A stretch of 64,000 nt of DNA from Candidatus Omnitrophica bacterium CG11_big_fil_rev_8_21_14_0_20_64_10. GTDB taxonomy: Bacteria > Omnitrophota > Gorgyraeia > 1-14-0-20-64-10. Below are positions 1 to 50,438 of this stretch, one piece after another. The notes under the pieces are model-generated. The model did no database searches. It was not told the DNA's origin and saw nothing but the letters and a program-made list of their open reading frames with translations. The stretch's first letter is position 1. Every line of letters begins with the position of its first letter. The DNA lies in the NCBI GenBank assembly GCA_002787095.1, contig PCVW01000010.1, positions 7,774-71,773 of the forward strand, in the 5' to 3' direction. The translations under genes and the position numbers were made by a program.

Positions 1-642
1 GAAGGTCAGAGCAAGCGTTACCATGTTGGGCCGCCCCGCCCCGTCCCGCATTCCGGCCAGGAGCCGGACCGATTCCGGCTCCGGGACGGCTCCGGCTTTC
101 GGGCTCAGCAGATCCAGGCAGAGGGCCAGATCATGCGGGAGGCGGTCCCAAAGCAGATCGGTCTGGCGGCGGAACGGGCCCAGATCCCCCTCCTCGGTGA
201 CGATTGCCCGGATGCCCCCCCCCGCTTTCCGAACGGCCTCCTTGACGGCTTGATAGGCCGGATTGAACAGCTGGATGTGGTTGACCCACACCGGGAGACC
301 GCTTTTCCGGACCGCATCGTTCAGGCGACGGGTGGAGGGCAGATCGAGGGTCAGCGGTTTCTCGACCCAGCAGGGTTTTTTCGCCGCCAGGCAGGCCGAG
401 ACCATCTCGGCATGAAGGGGATCGGGCGCGGCGATCAGGACCGCTTCGCAGTCGGAGGCGATCAGTTTTTTCCAGTCGTCCGTGACGGCAATCCCCGGCG
501 CGGAGGATGCAAGCCGCTCGGGATTCCGGACGGAGATGTGGGTGATTCGGACGATTTCCGGAAGTGCGGCGGCGCTCCGAAGAAGCACCTGTCCCCATCG
601 GCCGGCGCCGATCAACCCCAGGCGCAACGGCTCCAGCGCCAC
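1..642 (-). CDS. Gfo/Idh/MocA-family NAD(P)-dependent oxidoreductase, partial (C-terminus lies beyond the window start)
   Basis: Reverse-strand translation gives VALEPLRLGLIGAGRWGQVLL...DCEAVLIAAPDPLHAEMVSACLAAKKPCWVEKPL, the classic N-terminal Rossmann fold and EKP motif of this family. The GTG start at 642-640 lies 4 nt from the stop of the upstream gene. The ORF is absent from the track because it runs off the window edge. Confidence 0.7.
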   Translation of the reverse strand, partial: MALEPLRLGLIGAGRWGQVLLRSAAALPEIVRITHISVRNPERLASSAPGIAVTDDWKKLIASDCEAVLIAAPDPLHAEMVSACLAAKKPCWVEKPLTLDLPSTRRLNDAVRKSGLPVWVNHIQLFNPAYQAVKEAVRKAGGGIRAIVTEEGDLGPFRRQTDLLWDRLPHDLALCLDLLSPKAGAVPEPESVRLLAGMRDGAGRPNMVTLALTF

Positions 643-646
643 CCGA

Positions 647-1708
647 TCACTCCCCCCGATAGTGGGTCAGCGCCCAGTCCATGAAGCGCCGCAGCCCGTC
701 TTTCAGGGAGACCTGGGGGGCATAGCCCAGCTGCAGGGTCGCCTTGCCGATGTCAGGACAGCGCCGCTGCGGTTCATCCGCCGGATAGGAATCGGGATAT
801 TCAACCTGATCGATCGGGATTGGCCGGCCGAGGGCCTCGGTGATTGTCTGGGCCAGGTCCAGCATCGAGACCTCCGGCTTCGGGTTGCCGATGTTGTAGG
901 CCTGTCCCGGTCCGCCTTGGACGAGGGTTTTTATGAATCCGGTGATCGCGTCGGTCACATAGCAGAAGGTGCGGGTCTGCCGGCCGGTGCCGTAGATCCG
1001 GAGTGGTTTCCCGGACTTGATCCGGCTGGCGAAGTTCGGGAGGACCCGGTAGTCGGTCTCTTTCATGCCGGGCCCGTAAATATTGAACGGCCGGACGATC
1101 TTGGTCGGGACGCCGTCCTGTTCGTGGAAGATCATGCAGAGGGTCTCCCCCAGCCGCTTCGACTCGTCGTAGCAGGCCCGGGGTCCGATCGAGGCGACAT
1201 TCCCCCGGTACGACTCCGGGGTCGGGACATGTTTCGGATCCGGATCGCCGTAGATCTCGCTGGAGCTGAAATAAAGGAACCCCTTGAGGGGATGGTTTCG
1301 GGAGAAGAGCAGCAGGTTCTTCGCTCCCAGAGTTGCCACCTCGAGGGTCTGCAGGGGGTATTTTCGGTAGTAGTAGGGGCTGGCGATGCCGGCGGCGTGG
1401 ATGCAGTAATCGACCGTCTCCGGGACCTGCAGCGGTTGGATCACGTCATGCTCGATGAAGCGGGTCCCCGGCAGATCGGTTTTAAAATCTTCCGGCCGGC
1501 GGCTGGTGATGTGGTTGTCCACGCCGATCAGCCGGATCGGCTGTTTCCGGTTCTCCCGGTTGAAGGCGGCGAACAGCGCGGTGAAATAGGTTCCGAGGAA
1601 TCCGTGGGCGCCGGTCATCAGCACGACATGGCCGGAAAGGGCCTTCAGTTCCGGCTCGGTCTGCCGCAGGATTTCCTGGATGTCGCTGTCGAGATAGGTG
1701 GCGGTCAT
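647..1708 (-). CDS. UDP-glucuronate decarboxylase (UDP-xylose synthase, UXS/ArnA-decarboxylase-like) SDR
   Basis: 353 aa. GxxGxxG (TGAHGFLG); blocks GPRACYDESKR, RPFNIYGPG, TRTFCYVTD and PQRRCPDIGKA closely match UXS-type NAD-dependent decarboxylases. TGA stop at 649-647 checked. Confidence 0.85.
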   Translation of the reverse strand: MTATYLDSDIQEILRQTEPELKALSGHVVLMTGAHGFLGTYFTALFAAFNRENRKQPIRLIGVDNHITSRRPEDFKTDLPGTRFIEHDVIQPLQVPETVDYCIHAAGIASPYYYRKYPLQTLEVATLGAKNLLLFSRNHPLKGFLYFSSSEIYGDPDPKHVPTPESYRGNVASIGPRACYDESKRLGETLCMIFHEQDGVPTKIVRPFNIYGPGMKETDYRVLPNFASRIKSGKPLRIYGTGRQTRTFCYVTDAITGFIKTLVQGGPGQAYNIGNPKPEVSMLDLAQTITEALGRPIPIDQVEYPDSYPADEPQRRCPDIGKATLQLGYAPQVSLKDGLRRFMDWALTHYRGE

Positions 1709-1718
1709 GGAGTTCCCG

Positions 1719-3005
1719 TCATCTTACCTCAAGTTCCGGCAGCGGCACGATGAAATGTCCCCCGGCCGCCCGGAAATCAACCTGTTTGGCGATGATCGGC
1801 TCAGCGAAGTTCCAGGCCAGGATCAAACAGTGGTCCGGCCGGCGGCGGGGATCCCGCAGCACCTCCGAGGAGACGATCGGGATGTGGTGTCCCGGGGAGA
1901 GGAGCCCCTGCTTCCAGGGACTGTCATCGATGATCTGGGGCAGGTCCGCCGGCCCGAGCTCGAACTGGTACATCAGGGTGGTCGCCTTGGCCGGGGCCCC
2001 GAAACCGATGACCCGGCGCCCCTCGTTTTTCAACCGGTCGAGGAGGGTTCGCAGTTCCTCTTTCCGCCGGTGGATCCGGTCTCCCAGCTTTTGGAAGCAG
2101 GCGGCTTTGAACAGGCCGGCCCGCTCCTCCTCCCGGATCAGCCGGTGGAGCCGTTCGGCCGGTTGGATGCCTGCCCTTTTCGGCCGGACCCATCCCCGGA
2201 GGGAGCCGCCGTGCGTCTCCACCTTCTCCGCGTCGGCGAGGACCCATCCCCGGCTTTCGAAAAAACCGGCCAACGGCCGGGCGGTGTGATAGCTGAGGTG
2301 CTCGTGGTAGATCGTGTCGAACAGCAGCTTCTCCACGACCGCCAGCCCGTGGGAAACTTCGAAGAGGAACCAGCCGGCCGGATCCAGCAGTTCCGCGATC
2401 CCCCGGGCGATCCCGTCCAGGTCGTCGGCATGGGCGAAGACATTGTTCGCGGTGATCACCTTCGGCTTCCACCCTTCCCGCTTGAGGGCCCGGGCCAGCT
2501 CCGGGGTGAAGAATTCCGTCCGGGTCGGGATCCCCGTCTTTGAAGCGCTTTCGGCGATTTTGCGGGCCGGATCCAGCCCCAGCACCCGCATCCCCGCTTC
2601 CTGAAAGAAGCGCAGGAGGGTCCCGTCGTTGCTGCCGATGTCGATCACCTGGTCCCCCGGTTTGAGTTCCGCCCGTTCGATCACCGCCCGCGCGTACCGC
2701 CGGAAATGATCCACGAAGGCCGGCGAGGTCCCCGACACATAGACATAGTCCCGGAAGAGAATTTCGGGGGAGACGATCTCCTCCAGCTGCAGGTGGGCGC
2801 AAGCACGGCAGAGCCGCAGGGTTAGGGGGAAGCGGGGCTGCGGCTCGGCGGCCTGCTCCGGCCGGACGAAGGCATTGGCCAGCGGCGTCTCACGCAACGA
2901 CAGGACCGGGTCGGTCCCGGCGCCGCAAAGCCGGCAATCCCGCCGCCGCTTCAGCCAGCCGGCCGCTTCGGCGGTCCGATCGGCCGGCGCCGAATTCGGC
3001 TTCAT
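1719..3005 (-). CDS. NDP-hexose C-methyltransferase (TylC3/NovU family), copy 1
   Basis: N-terminal zinc ribbon CRLCGAG...PLANAFV...CRAC followed by a class-I methyltransferase core (VIDIGSNDG), then the C-methyltransferase C-terminal domain (WNFAEPI). The real ATG at 3005-3003 forms an ATGA overlap with the upstream stop. The track ORF 1719..3467 carries a 154-aa spurious N-terminal extension. Confidence 0.8.
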   Translation of the reverse strand: MKPNSAPADRTAEAAGWLKRRRDCRLCGAGTDPVLSLRETPLANAFVRPEQAAEPQPRFPLTLRLCRACAHLQLEEIVSPEILFRDYVYVSGTSPAFVDHFRRYARAVIERAELKPGDQVIDIGSNDGTLLRFFQEAGMRVLGLDPARKIAESASKTGIPTRTEFFTPELARALKREGWKPKVITANNVFAHADDLDGIARGIAELLDPAGWFLFEVSHGLAVVEKLLFDTIYHEHLSYHTARPLAGFFESRGWVLADAEKVETHGGSLRGWVRPKRAGIQPAERLHRLIREEERAGLFKAACFQKLGDRIHRRKEELRTLLDRLKNEGRRVIGFGAPAKATTLMYQFELGPADLPQIIDDSPWKQGLLSPGHHIPIVSSEVLRDPRRRPDHCLILAWNFAEPIIAKQVDFRAAGGHFIVPLPELEVR

Positions 3006-3418
3006 TGCTCCGGCGAAACCTTCATCGGGGGGATCCGGACGATGTCCGCTTCGTAGTCCGGCGCGTGGCGGTCGTTGCGGGCCACGACGAACAGGACTGA
3101 ATCCTCGGTGAAGACCATCACATGTTCGAACATCGGCGGCGAGTAGAAGAGGGTTCCCGGGGTGATGATCCACTGCTGGGGCGCCTCGGTGGAGCCGACC
3201 GGCCGGTGGGCGTAGATCATCCGGCCGGAATGGAGCCAGGAGTAGTGGAAATCGGTCTTGTGGTAATGGTTCCCCCGCACCGCCCCCTTCTTGGAATGGA
3301 TCACGAGGGCCGAGCCCAGCGGCAGGTCCACGAGGTTCTGGATCATCCCCCGGTCGTCCCGGAAAGGGGCCGGCAGTTGGACCACGGTTTTCGGATCCAG
3401 TTTCTTTGAAGGGGTCAT
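3002..3418 (-). CDS. WxcM/FdtA-like cupin (putative NDP-4-keto-6-deoxyhexose 3,4-ketoisomerase)
   Basis: 138 aa, small cupin. RGNHYHK resembles the FdtA His-x-His block RGFHAHK; size and context (next to a C-methyltransferase) fit. Confidence 0.55.
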   Translation of the reverse strand: MTPSKKLDPKTVVQLPAPFRDDRGMIQNLVDLPLGSALVIHSKKGAVRGNHYHKTDFHYSWLHSGRMIYAHRPVGSTEAPQQWIITPGTLFYSPPMFEHVMVFTEDSVLFVVARNDRHAPDYEADIVRIPPMKVSPEQ

Positions 3419-3423
3419 TCCGT

Positions 3424-4287
3424 TTACTCCTTGTTTGTCTTTTGATGAACGATGAAATTGCCGCCATGTTTGAGGCGCCGGACCACCCGGACCCCGAACG
3501 GCCGGTTCCCGATCCCCGCCTTCTCCAACAGGCGGGAGAGCGGGTCCGGCTTCAGCTGGCCGAGGAACTCCAGCCCGTGCCGATGAAGCAGCTCATTCCA
3601 GACCGGCATGGCCTGGTAGATGAAGTTCTTCTCCAGATGGATGTGGTGCTGCTCCGAGGGGCTGAAGGTGGATTTGCTGATCAGCCATCCCCCCGGCTTG
3701 AGCGTCTTCGCGATCCGGCCGACCGCCTCATCCAGATCGAACAGATGCTCGAAGACATCCCAGGCGATCACCGCGTCGTACCGCTCCTGCGGCAGCGGCT
3801 CTAGGGCGGAGAGGACCTCCGCCTCGAAGCCTTCCCGCTTGAATCGCCAACCGGCGTAGTCCCGGGTGTTGCCCGGCACATCCAGGTGATCGCATCGGAT
3901 TCCCCGCCGCCGCAGGTGCAGAGTGACGCCGCCGACCCCGCCGCCAAAGTCCAGCACCCGCTCCTTGCCCCATCGCCGGCAGGCCAGCGCCAGCACCTCG
4001 AGCCATTTCTGCTTGTCCCGCGTCGCCTCCCAGTAGCTCAGTTCATACAGGTACTGCGGCGTCTGGGCGTAGTAGGCGTCCACCTCCGCGGCGGTTTGGG
4101 CCCGGGCGGCCCGCTTCTGCGCCTCCACATCCTCCGTTTCCTTCTTCTCCCAGTAGGTTTTGGCGATCGCCTCCAGCGGTTCCCGGAGGTACCCGGTCAG
4201 GTGGCCAAAGGCAGTTTCGGCCGCCCGGGGATCCAGCCCCGCGACGCAGAGCTCCTCCTCCAGGGCCGGATCACGATACGGCGTCAT
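3424..4287 (-). CDS. class I SAM-dependent methyltransferase (MT1)
   Basis: Motif I VLDFGGGVGG and post-I acidic residue; ATG at 4287-4285 checked (cat on the plus strand). Confidence 0.75.
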   Translation of the reverse strand: MTPYRDPALEEELCVAGLDPRAAETAFGHLTGYLREPLEAIAKTYWEKKETEDVEAQKRAARAQTAAEVDAYYAQTPQYLYELSYWEATRDKQKWLEVLALACRRWGKERVLDFGGGVGGVTLHLRRRGIRCDHLDVPGNTRDYAGWRFKREGFEAEVLSALEPLPQERYDAVIAWDVFEHLFDLDEAVGRIAKTLKPGGWLISKSTFSPSEQHHIHLEKNFIYQAMPVWNELLHRHGLEFLGQLKPDPLSRLLEKAGIGNRPFGVRVVRRLKHGGNFIVHQKTNKE

Positions 4288-5872
4288 GGTTTTCCGCGAT
4301 CTCCCAGTATTTGGCCCAGAGGGCATGGTGAAAGAAGGCGGTCAGCCCGGCGAAGAGGAACCCGATCCGCCCTTCCCGGAAGCCCCCCTGCTTGATGAAC
4401 GATTTCCAGAAACGGTGGATCGGTTTGAAGACCATCTGTCCCCGCACGACCTGCCAAGGGAGCCGGCCCTTCTCCCGGAAGAGGACCGCCGCCTCGACGT
4501 TCGAGTAATGGTTCTGCCGGTCGATGAACTGCGCGAACGATTGGAACGGATGGTGCTCGATCTCCGCTTCCAGCGGGGCGACCTCCCCGTCCACCTGCAG
4601 GCGGACATGGATCCCCTGCCCCACGCAGCGGGCGTTCTTCCTGCGGAACAGGATCCGGTGCCGGTGCCGCCAGCCCCCCCGCCGCATCGGATGGCCCAGG
4701 AAGAAGTTGAGTCGGATCAGGTCGTAGGCCCGGACCCGGCCGTCGTTGGTCCGCAGCGCTTCATCGATCGCGTCCCGCAGCGCCGGGGTCACGATCTCGT
4801 CGGCGTCGATGTGCAGGATCCACTCGCTCTCGGCCCGGTCGCTGCCGATGTTCCATTGCTGATCGTGGTTGTCCCGGGAGGGATGGACGAACACCTTGGG
4901 GGTGAAACGCTTCGCGATCGCGACGCTGTCGTCGCTGCTTTCATCGTCCACGATCACGATCTCGTCGGCCCATCCCTGGACCTGCTCCAGGCAGTGGGCC
5001 AGCCGGGCCGCTTCGTTCTTCACCATCATCACCACCGCCAATGTCGGGCGCCGCCGGCCCGGGGGCTCCGCCGCCGGCCGGCTCACCGCATCTCCCGCCG
5101 GAACGGTCTCCGTCCGCTGCGTTGCTTCCCAGTATTTGGCGTAGCTGACGAACTGGTAGAGGCCGCCGAGGACCGCGGCGACGAAGCCGATCCAGCCGTC
5201 CTTCCGTCCCTTCTTGCCGACATAAGCCCGAAAGAAGCGGTCGATCGTCCGCTGCATCCCCTTGCCGAACGACATCTTCCGGCCGTCGGTCAGCCACTTC
5301 CGGGTCTCCAGGGTCGTTTGCCGGTTGAGCTTGCCGATGAAATCCCCGATGTCCCGATAGGAGTAGTGGAGGATGTCGCCGGTCAGCGCCCCCGAGGGCT
5401 GGTCGGAGATCGCCCGGCAGTGGACCGTCGTCTCCTCCCAGCGGAAGGCGGACCGCTTGTACAGCTTGACCTGGGCGCTTGGGTACCAGCCGCCGTGCTT
5501 GAGCCAGCGCCGCCCGATGTAGTTCCGGCGGGGAATCGCGTAGACGGCCTTCTCCGGTGTCCCCCGGAAGAGGGTCTGCAGTTCCTCCGCCAGCTCCGGG
5601 GTCACCCGCTCGTCGGCGTCGATGCTCAGGATCCAGTCGTTCCGGGCCTGGGCCGCCGCCCAGTTCCGATGCCGCCCTTCCAGGTCCATCTTCCGGTGGA
5701 CGACCCGGACCCGGGGGCTCTGATTCCTGGCGATCGCGACGGTGTCGTCGCTGCTTTCATCGTCTACGACCAGGATCTCGTCGGCGAACGGCACCGAGTC
5801 CAGGCAGTCCCGGATCCGGCCGGCCTCGTTCTTCGTCAGGACGACGACGGTGAGCGGGAGAGATTCCGGCAT
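4271..5872 (-). CDS. tandem (two-domain) family-2 glycosyltransferase
   Basis: Two consecutive GT-A/GT2 modules: LTVVVLTKNEAGRI...ILVVDDESSDDT and LAVVMMVKNEAARL...IVIVDDESSDDS. ATG at 5872-5870. The first 111 aa of track ORF 4271..6205 are rejected as an extension. Confidence 0.8.
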   Translation of the reverse strand: MPESLPLTVVVLTKNEAGRIRDCLDSVPFADEILVVDDESSDDTVAIARNQSPRVRVVHRKMDLEGRHRNWAAAQARNDWILSIDADERVTPELAEELQTLFRGTPEKAVYAIPRRNYIGRRWLKHGGWYPSAQVKLYKRSAFRWEETTVHCRAISDQPSGALTGDILHYSYRDIGDFIGKLNRQTTLETRKWLTDGRKMSFGKGMQRTIDRFFRAYVGKKGRKDGWIGFVAAVLGGLYQFVSYAKYWEATQRTETVPAGDAVSRPAAEPPGRRRPTLAVVMMVKNEAARLAHCLEQVQGWADEIVIVDDESSDDSVAIAKRFTPKVFVHPSRDNHDQQWNIGSDRAESEWILHIDADEIVTPALRDAIDEALRTNDGRVRAYDLIRLNFFLGHPMRRGGWRHRHRILFRRKNARCVGQGIHVRLQVDGEVAPLEAEIEHHPFQSFAQFIDRQNHYSNVEAAVLFREKGRLPWQVVRGQMVFKPIHRFWKSFIKQGGFREGRIGFLFAGLTAFFHHALWAKYWEIAENHDAVS

Positions 5873-48314: not shown

Positions 48315-49200
48315 CGCGGCCCTGCTCCCATTCGAACAGCGCGGTCAGGCCGGCCTCCAGATTCCGAAATGGGGGCACGCTGGCTTGGCGGAGTTTCCGG
48401 CAATCCATCCGGACCTGAAGGGGCCGGGCGGCCCGCTGCTTAAGTTCAACGGTCTTCAACGGTTTCAGCAAGTTGAGGTCCAAGTTAAAGCGGCGACAGA
48501 CCTGTTCCGAGAGGGTTCTCCGATCGACGAAATCGGGTCCCGCCGCGTGAAAGATTCCCGTATCCCCTTGTTGGAGTAAGAATTGCGTTGCTTTTGCGAC
48601 ATCCTCAGTATAGGTGGGGGTCCCCCATTGGTCAATGGGGATCGAGGCCGGCTCCCCCGCCCGCAGCCGATCCACCAGCCGAAGGATGAAGTTTTTTCGG
48701 ACCGGGTCCGGTCCGAACAGCCAGGCGGTCCGGAGGATCAGATGCCGGTCCGGCAGGAGCGTTCGGATCGCGGCCTCCCCATCCGCTTTGGAGCGGGCAT
48801 ACTGATTGAGCGGAATGATCGGATCGGTTTCCCGATAGGGTTCCCCCTTCCGGCCGTTAAAGAGGTAGTCGGTTGAAAAATAAACCAAACGCTTCAGCCG
48901 GTCCCGGCCGGCTTCGGCAATGCGCCGGGGGGTGCCGGCGTTGATCTGATGACAAACAGTCGGCTCCGATTCGGCGCCGTCCACATTGCAATAGGCCCCC
49001 GCGATCAGGATCTGATCGGGACGCAGCATTTTGACGGCCCGAACGGCTCCCTCCGGGTCCCGCAGGTCGATGGGGTGCTGACCCGGCGCCCGGTGATGGC
49101 AGGCCGATTCCAGGACCTCCTCTCCGGCCGCCCGCAGCAGCCGGACCAGTTGCCGGCCCAATTGGCCGGAGGCGCCGATGACCAGCGAACGCCCCGGCAT
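48304..49200 (-). CDS. RmlD-like NDP-4-keto-6-deoxyhexose reductase (dTDP-4-dehydrorhamnose reductase family)
   Basis: LVIGASGQLGRQL...YFSTDYLFNG...PLNQYARSK (YxxxK). ATG at 49200-49198 in a TGATG overlap. Confidence 0.75.
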   Translation of the reverse strand: MPGRSLVIGASGQLGRQLVRLLRAAGEEVLESACHHRAPGQHPIDLRDPEGAVRAVKMLRPDQILIAGAYCNVDGAESEPTVCHQINAGTPRRIAEAGRDRLKRLVYFSTDYLFNGRKGEPYRETDPIIPLNQYARSKADGEAAIRTLLPDRHLILRTAWLFGPDPVRKNFILRLVDRLRAGEPASIPIDQWGTPTYTEDVAKATQFLLQQGDTGIFHAAGPDFVDRRTLSEQVCRRFNLDLNLLKPLKTVELKQRAARPLQVRMDCRKLRQASVPPFRNLEAGLTALFEWEQGRDAA

Positions 49201-50438
49201 CAGATCACCCGGGGAGCGGGAATCGGGATCAGGAACCGGCCTCCTCCGGCCCGGAAGGATTCCATCTGCCGAACGATCTCCTCCTGAAAGTTCCAGGCCA
49301 GAATCACCAGATGGGTGATGCCGTTCGGATTCCAGCCTTCGGGAGAGCGGACCGGCAGATGGGTTCCGGGGGTCCATAGTCCCTGCTTGTGGGGCGAGCG
49401 GTCCAGCACACAGACCAGCCGGGCGGCCGCTTCGGGGCAGAAATTGAGGAGGGTGTTCGCCTTGGCTGCCGCCCCGTAGCCGGCCAGCCGCCCGCCCGAC
49501 TCGGCGATCCTCTGAACCAGCGATTCAAACCTTCCCTTCCAGCGCCGGACGCGGCCCGCGAAACGATTGAAGGCGGCCGGATCGGTCAGTTTGAGTTTCC
49601 TTTCCGCCGCCAGCAGGGTCTTGAGATTCGAAGTGGGACGGCCGCTCCCTTTGCGCTGCAGGGTCATCAGGATCGACCCGCCGTGCAGCGCCACCGGCTC
49701 CGCCTCGATCAATTGGAAGCCGGTCATCTCGGCCAACCGGGCGATCGGCGCCAGGGCGATATAGGAGAGGTGCTCATGGTAGATCGTGTCGAATTCGTCC
49801 GCTTCCAGCAAGTTCTTCAGGTACGGCACCTCGATCAGGAGGACCCCATCCGGGGTCAGAAAATGGTCGGCGGCGGCCATGAAATCGTGCCAGTCGTCGA
49901 TGTGGGCAAAAACATGGCGTCCCAGCAGGACCCGGGCCTGCTTCCCTTTTTCCTTCCCGGAGAGGATCTTCCGGACCGTTTTGGCGCAGAAGAATTCCGA
50001 GACCGTCGGAACGCCTCGGGCCTGCGCGATCCGGGCCAGGTTCCGGGCCGGCTCGATCCCCAGCACCTGGGTCCCGAGCCCCTGAAAGGCCTTCAGGATC
50101 AGGCCGTCGTTGCTCCCCAATTCGGCGACCCGGTCCTCCGGGCCCAACCGATAGCGGGCGCAGATGCGGGCCGCCAGCGTGCTGGCGTAGACCCGGACCG
50201 CGTCGGAGGTGGAGGAGACATACAGGTAATTGCGGTACAGCTGCTCCGGAGGAACTGTTTCGGTCAGCTGGACCAGTCCGCAATCGGGACAGCCGGCAAC
50301 CGCCAGCGGGAAACGGGGCTCCTTCTTGAAATCGGATCGGTTCTTGAGAAAGGCATTGGCCAACGACATCGGTCCCAGATCCAGGAACGGTTCGGGGAGT
50401 TGGGTTTGGCAGATGCGGCAACGGGTATGGGCAGACAC
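49200..50438 (-). CDS. NDP-hexose C-methyltransferase (TylC3/NovU family), copy 2
   Basis: Zinc ribbon CRICQT...LANAFL...CPDC; ELGSNDG motif I; C-terminal C-methyltransferase domain (LAWNFQEEI). GTG start at 50438-50436. Confidence 0.8.
   Translation of the reverse strand: MSAHTRCRICQTQLPEPFLDLGPMSLANAFLKNRSDFKKEPRFPLAVAGCPDCGLVQLTETVPPEQLYRNYLYVSSTSDAVRVYASTLAARICARYRLGPEDRVAELGSNDGLILKAFQGLGTQVLGIEPARNLARIAQARGVPTVSEFFCAKTVRKILSGKEKGKQARVLLGRHVFAHIDDWHDFMAAADHFLTPDGVLLIEVPYLKNLLEADEFDTIYHEHLSYIALAPIARLAEMTGFQLIEAEPVALHGGSILMTLQRKGSGRPTSNLKTLLAAERKLKLTDPAAFNRFAGRVRRWKGRFESLVQRIAESGGRLAGYGAAAKANTLLNFCPEAAARLVCVLDRSPHKQGLWTPGTHLPVRSPEGWNPNGITHLVILAWNFQEEIVRQMESFRAGGGRFLIPIPAPRVI

Follow-up and report, generated by a model that had tools for sequence, protein, structure and literature searches.

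A cassette of four adjacent genes at the low-coordinate end of the window (the whole 64,000-nt stretch of DNA that was analyzed) is proposed to be a self-contained route from UDP-glucuronic acid to a C-methyl-branched UDP-pentose, a reading to which we assign a probability of about 0.5. The sugar made, most likely a five-carbon one with a methyl branch, would serve the cell surface. A preliminary description of this DNA had suggested a C-methylated pentose or a rearranged keto-sugar. This is still the best explanation, and it is strengthened because the cassette is conserved across phyla, is found with its genes fused elsewhere, and lacks a hexose 4,6-dehydratase and nucleotidyltransferase. 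In agreement with the earlier statement that no characterized pathway joins a UXS-type decarboxylase, a C-methyltransferase, and a 3,4-ketoisomerase, our literature search found no paper on this cassette or enzyme combination.

Gene layout

The four cassette genes and two adjoining genes are all encoded on the minus strand:

1..642 (minus strand), Gfo/Idh/MocA oxidoreductase (Gfo), N-terminal 214 codons in the window; PF01408; predicted terminal ketoreductase
647..1708 (minus strand), UXS/ArnA-type extended SDR, 353 aa; predicted UDP-glucuronate 4-oxidase/decarboxylase yielding UDP-4-keto-pentose
1719..3005 (minus strand), TylC3/TcaB9-family SAM-dependent sugar C-methyltransferase (C-MT), 428 aa; PF08421 (Cys4 zinc domain), PF13489, and PF08484
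3002..3418 (minus strand), stand-alone CapF-type cupin, 138 aa; probable metal binder, 3,4-ketol isomerase or 3-epimerase on a UDP-keto-sugar
3424..4287, with the ORF extending to 4326 (minus strand), class-I SAM methyltransferase, called at 287 aa; PF13489 and PF08241
4271..5872 (minus strand), double-domain GT2 glycosyltransferase, 533 aa; PF00535 twice

The tight packing noted in the preliminary description was borne out. Cupin stop and C-MT start share an ATGA at 3002-3005, 10 nt separate C-MT from SDR, and 4 nt separate SDR from Gfo, which begins with a GTG at 642. Gene calls made independently on the public contig, which is identical, place the boundaries of cupin, C-MT, SDR, and Gfo (138, 428, 353, and 328 aa) the same way. 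Gfo does run off the window, as had been observed, and further sequence of that contig completes it (328 aa; L001, 11067-12053). As a coding-signal check, third-position GC was scored for the SDR, the cupin, and the longer ORF 1719-3467, leaving out the truncated Gfo ORF 1-642; it was 0.83-0.86 for SDR and cupin and 0.73 over the longer ORF, which includes the C-MT.

Three core enzymes

The SDR is the best-supported step of the pathway, and its sequence argues for the UXS-type decarboxylase proposed earlier. The best PDB matches are four human UXS1 (hUXS1) entries at about 1e-57 (best 1.6e-57), the next match being at 2.6e-30. The similarity to hUXS1 is moderate (198 bits) and exceeds that to any PDB reductase, epimerase, or dehydratase by about 90 bits or more. 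Residues S149, S150, E151, Y180, K184, N209, and R316 align with hUXS1 T118, S119, E120, Y147, K151, N176, and R277, that is, six active-site residues and position 176, and all seven positions are invariant in 39/39 cassette SDRs. The Thr118 position is Ser in every one of them (Ser-Ser-Glu, not Thr-Ser-Glu), and the UXS-specific Ser119, Glu120, and Arg277 equivalents are always kept. The roles of these residues have been described for hUXS1 (PMC3438964, PMC10338323), where Arg277 holds the keto-pentose inside the enzyme (PMC3438964). A GalE-type 4-epimerase was considered for the SDR and rejected, as UXS1 lies far above any dehydratase or epimerase.

Several UXS-type SDRs (ArnA, RsU4kpxs, CalS9, AtmS9, and EvdS6) decarboxylate UDP-GlcA and release UDP-4-keto-pentose for tailoring (PMC10338323). 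The ArnA/ArnB/formyltransferase route to UDP-Ara4N resembles the cassette in its SDR, and a variant cassette at locus L083 adds a DegT aminotransferase and a formyltransferase. Unlike the cassette, however, neither the ArnA/ArnB route nor the RsU4kpxs, CalS9, AtmS9, and EvdS6 routes have a C-MT or a cupin, and the ArnB aminotransferase is of the C4 type, whereas that of the variant cassettes is QdtB/DesV/WbpE-like.

The C-MT matches the D-mycarose 3-C-methyltransferase (PDB 4rv9) at 6.8e-88, with which it shares an identical FDTIYHEHLSY motif, and KijD1/TcaB9 structures at 1e-70 to 1e-75. Its assignment to the TylC3 family therefore stands, as does the count of two such genes in the window; the other copy, at ~49200-50369, is 39% identical to it. 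Every solved relative among the PDB matches is a 3-C-methyltransferase on a 4-keto sugar, which counts against our preferred reading; to our knowledge, no member of this family methylates beside a 3-keto group. Fusions of C-MT to SDR (~765 aa) occur in six loci and more than 110 protein clusters, and a cupin::C-MT fusion (P0362) is also present, so that gene fusions link all three core enzymes.

The TylC3, EryBIII, MtmC, TcaB9, and KijD1 pathways (mycarose, tetronitrose, kijanose) use the same C-MT family, with Cys4 zinc and SAM domains and the YHEH motif; they methylate beside a sugar ketone, and a cupin and a reductase (Gfo-type or SDR) are also among their enzymes. These pathways begin with dTDP-glucose and a 4,6-dehydratase, in many cases with a 2,3-dehydratase next, and end in 6-deoxyhexoses, whereas the cassette has no dehydratase or nucleotidyltransferase. 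With a UXS-type decarboxylase as keto-sugar donor, its substrate is therefore predicted to be a UDP-pentose.

The cupin had been described as WxcM/FdtA-like, which did not hold. In the domain search it matched neither PF05523 (FdtA/WxcM) nor PF00908 (RmlC), and by both sequence and fold its nearest relative is the metal-dependent cupin domain of CapF, FdtA and QdtA being clearly poorer matches. A His-x-His metal motif is common to the cassette cupin and the CapF C-terminal domain; in the former, His takes the place of the canonical Glu ligand of CapF. The CapF domain is Zn-dependent, acts on a UDP-4-keto sugar (naturally a UDP-4-keto-6-deoxy sugar) with a Zn-bound ketol, and is described as an epimerase. 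By similarity, then, the cassette cupin resembles an enzyme working on a UDP-4-keto-sugar. It probably binds metal and acts on a UDP-keto-sugar as a 3,4-ketol isomerase or 3-epimerase. The former is the most coherent role because the finishing enzymes (Gfo or QdtB/DesV/WbpE-like aminotransferases) are of a C3-acting kind; that CapF is termed an epimerase and not a ketoisomerase counts against it.

In CapF/WbjC, which serves UDP-L-FucNAc synthesis in S. aureus and P. aeruginosa, cupin and SDR reductase form one polypeptide that acts after a CapE-type 4,6-dehydratase/5-epimerase; the cassette cupin, by contrast, is a free protein whose partner, at times joined to it by fusion, is a C-MT. An RmlC/TylK-like 3,5-epimerase was ruled out for the cupin by the lack of PF00908 and the closeness to CapF. 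The preliminary description had reasoned that an ordinary 3,5-epimerase together with a plain 4-epimerase would make this a routine 6-deoxyhexose pathway; the cupin is not of the RmlC type and the SDR is not of the GalE type.

Distribution and finishing enzymes

The cupin, C-MT, and SDR genes occur in the same order and with fixed spacing in 59 loci (55/80 from the genome scan), which were retrieved with the cupin as query and contain it by that choice. Carriers include Omnitrophota, Planctomycetota, Verrucomicrobiota, Chloroflexota, Proteobacteria, Elusimicrobia, CPR, DPANN archaea, and two cultured actinomycetes, Actinacidiphila paucisporea CGMCC 4.2025 and Micromonospora sp. KC213. At L008, the cassette lies alone amid unrelated genes; at L067, a trio of cupin, C-MT, and Gfo adjoins a GDP-mannose-4,6-dehydratase-like SDR and heptose-activation genes. 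No 4,6-dehydratase, 2,3-dehydratase, or nucleotidyltransferase recurs with the cassette over the 59 loci. The recurrent order and the lone cassette at L008 mark it as a unit, and it is taken to draw on a housekeeping sugar nucleotide, since neither nucleotidyltransferases nor 4,6-dehydratases rank among the 25 commonest families of its 105 immediate neighbor genes. UDP-glucose dehydrogenase was found neither in the window nor adjoining main-type cassettes, which is neutral since UDP-GlcA is a common metabolite.

Gfo matches PF01408 at 6.4e-17 and contains an EKP motif. Closest to it in the PDB is 3c1a (5.8e-45), whose function is unknown; then come inositol dehydrogenases, 7bvj (1.5e-10), and KijD10, a "sugar 3-ketoreductase"; an NCBIfam UDP-GlcNAc 3-dehydrogenase model matches at 1e-15. 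Fifty loci extend far enough downstream to be scored: 41 carry Gfo but no DegT aminotransferase, 5 carry DegT but no Gfo, 4 lack the two, and none has them together (Fisher p = 6e-5). These gene-content statistics support Gfo as the finishing ketoreductase. The best function-known PDB matches of the DegT proteins are QdtB, DesV (2oga), WbpE, and NtdA (1e-50 to 1e-107, with QdtB at 1e-102 to 1e-107), which we take to be C3-aminotransferases; matches to the C4-type ArnB, Per, and WecE are weaker (1e-32 to 1e-49). On these similarities, C3 is the predicted site for both the DegT and the Gfo enzymes, each being of the kind that acts there.

At L083 and L085, cupin, C-MT, and SDR form a single operon with DegT and a formyltransferase or hexapeptide acyltransferase. 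These variants follow the logic of the 3-acylamido-3,6-dideoxyhexose routes, from cupin (FdtA/QdtA) to QdtB-like C3-aminotransferase (FdtB/QdtB) to N-acyl- or N-formyltransferase (FdtC/QdtC/FdtF). In those routes the keto-sugar comes from RmlB, whereas the cassette has a decarboxylase and a C-MT, and its cupin falls outside the FdtA family.

Homologs of the class-I SAM methyltransferase immediately precede the cupin in L005 and L035 and immediately follow Gfo in L017, L018, L022, and L028. We regard this gene as accessory to the cassette, with a linkage seen mainly in Omnitrophota-type loci; its product may O-methylate the sugar or glycan. GT2 is the commonest family adjoining the cassette elsewhere (14/105 neighbor proteins), and the GT2 at 4271..5872 is a candidate transferase for the cassette product.

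Proposed route and alternatives

We propose that the SDR, with bound NAD+, would oxidize UDP-GlcA at C4, decarboxylate it, and, like ArnA, hand on UDP-4-keto-pentose rather than reduce it to UDP-xylose. The CapF-type metal cupin would act on the 3,4-enediolate, most probably moving the carbonyl from C4 to C3. The C-MT would then use SAM to methylate the carbinol carbon beside the ketone, at C4 or C2 from the 3-keto form or at C3 from the 4-keto form directly. Gfo, with NAD(P)H, would reduce the remaining ketone, probably at C3, and the UDP-C-methyl-pentose would be taken by adjacent GT2 glycosyltransferases of the LPS/O-antigen-like cluster.

With the same substrate and enzymes, simple TylC3-like chemistry would give UDP-3-C-methyl-pentose, an outcome we consider unlikely although it fits the solved C-MT relatives, the CapF description as a UDP-4-keto sugar epimerase, and the C-MT::SDR fusion, which would unite consecutive steps. 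A 3-epimerase ahead of C3-methylation would leave a pentose product unchanged because the enediolate is planar and C5 is no stereocenter, yet the cupin is in all 59 (cupin-searched) core loci. Further, the aminotransferases replacing Gfo group with C3 and not ArnB-type C4 enzymes, and the sugar-nucleotide relatives returned for Gfo (the UDP-GlcNAc 3-dehydrogenase model and KijD10) are C3-acting.

We think it quite improbable that the cassette serves an ordinary branched 6-deoxyhexose route, with the SDR as a 4-ketoreductase, epimerase, or dehydratase. Such a route could be of the mycarose type, the cassette families mapping one-to-one onto what we take to be TylC1 (Gfo-type 3-ketoreductase), TylC2 (SDR), TylC3 (C-MT), and TylK (cupin). 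It could also finish a keto-sugar from the window's other module (46.7-53.5 kb; nucleotidyltransferase, 4,6-dehydratase, C-MT, reductase), whose nucleotidyltransferase and 4,6-dehydratase-type SDR are about 50 kb away. That module presumably resembles the Bacillus cereus cereose operon and CDP-vinelose-type routes, ordinary hexose routes whose first two enzymes the cassette lacks, having a UXS-type SDR instead. SDR function is indeed hard to infer from sequence (PMC10338323). Against this stand the UXS-specific residues and score lead of the SDR, the 59 loci lacking dehydratases and nucleotidyltransferase, the lone cassette at L008, a cupin that is not RmlC/TylK-like, and the divergence of the two modules, whose C-MTs are only 39% identical and whose cupins are unrelated in sequence.

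The TylC3 family also includes the C5-methyltransferases NovU and CloU. On that model, SDR and C-MT would make a UDP-4-keto-6-deoxyhexose, or a 5,5-dimethyl noviose-like skeleton, from UDP-GlcA, the 6-methyl coming from SAM and not from 4,6-dehydration; the cupin would form the 3-keto sugar, and Gfo or DegT would finish at C3. The fused C-MT::SDR would again run consecutive steps, CapF naturally uses a UDP-4-keto-6-deoxy sugar, and the DegT proteins are very near QdtB, whose substrate is a 3-keto-6-deoxyhexose. We nevertheless find this more doubtful still: the route is costly compared to a single dehydratase, and the gene content of L067 indicates that the C-MT is kept even where a dehydratase already supplies a deoxy-keto sugar.

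Least probable is a complete UDP-xylose synthase followed by Gfo as a UDP-xylose 3-dehydrogenase like WlbA or GnnA, its ketone serving cupin and C-MT before re-reduction by Gfo with retained NAD(P)H or by the SDR; the UDP-sugar 3-dehydrogenases among the Gfo matches (the UDP-GlcNAc model and 7bvj) and the conserved keto-pentose-retaining Arg277 favor it, but the five loci that have an aminotransferase in place of Gfo leave only the SDR as the source of the ketone, and the C-MT::SDR fusions argue for direct hand-over.

It counts against the preferred reading, a UDP-C-methyl-pentose made from UDP-GlcA, that we know of no C-methyl pentose reported from any bacterial surface glycan. Natural C-branched or rearranged pentoses like the predicted product do arise from UDP-xylose or UDP-4-keto-xylose. 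Garosamine of gentamicin is 3-deoxy-4-C-methyl-3-methylamino-L-arabinose, made with a C3 dehydrogenase and aminotransferase and bearing its methyl at C4; however, it is tailored after glycosyl transfer and C-methylated by a radical-SAM/cobalamin enzyme, not a TylC3-type enzyme on a UDP-pentose. Eurekanate, of the everninomicin/avilamycin eurekanate/L-lyxose pathway with EvdS6 (PMC10338323), has a two-carbon branch and, unlike the cassette, involves no TylC3-type enzyme on a UDP-pentose.

New here are the recurrence of the cassette across phyla, the missing nucleotide-sugar supply genes, the C-MT::SDR fusions, the UXS residues in 39/39 SDRs, and the mutual exclusivity of Gfo and aminotransferase. 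Sister cassettes, with a C3-type aminotransferase and a formyl- or acetyltransferase in place of Gfo, would give a 3-acylamido-3-deoxy-C-methyl-pentose.

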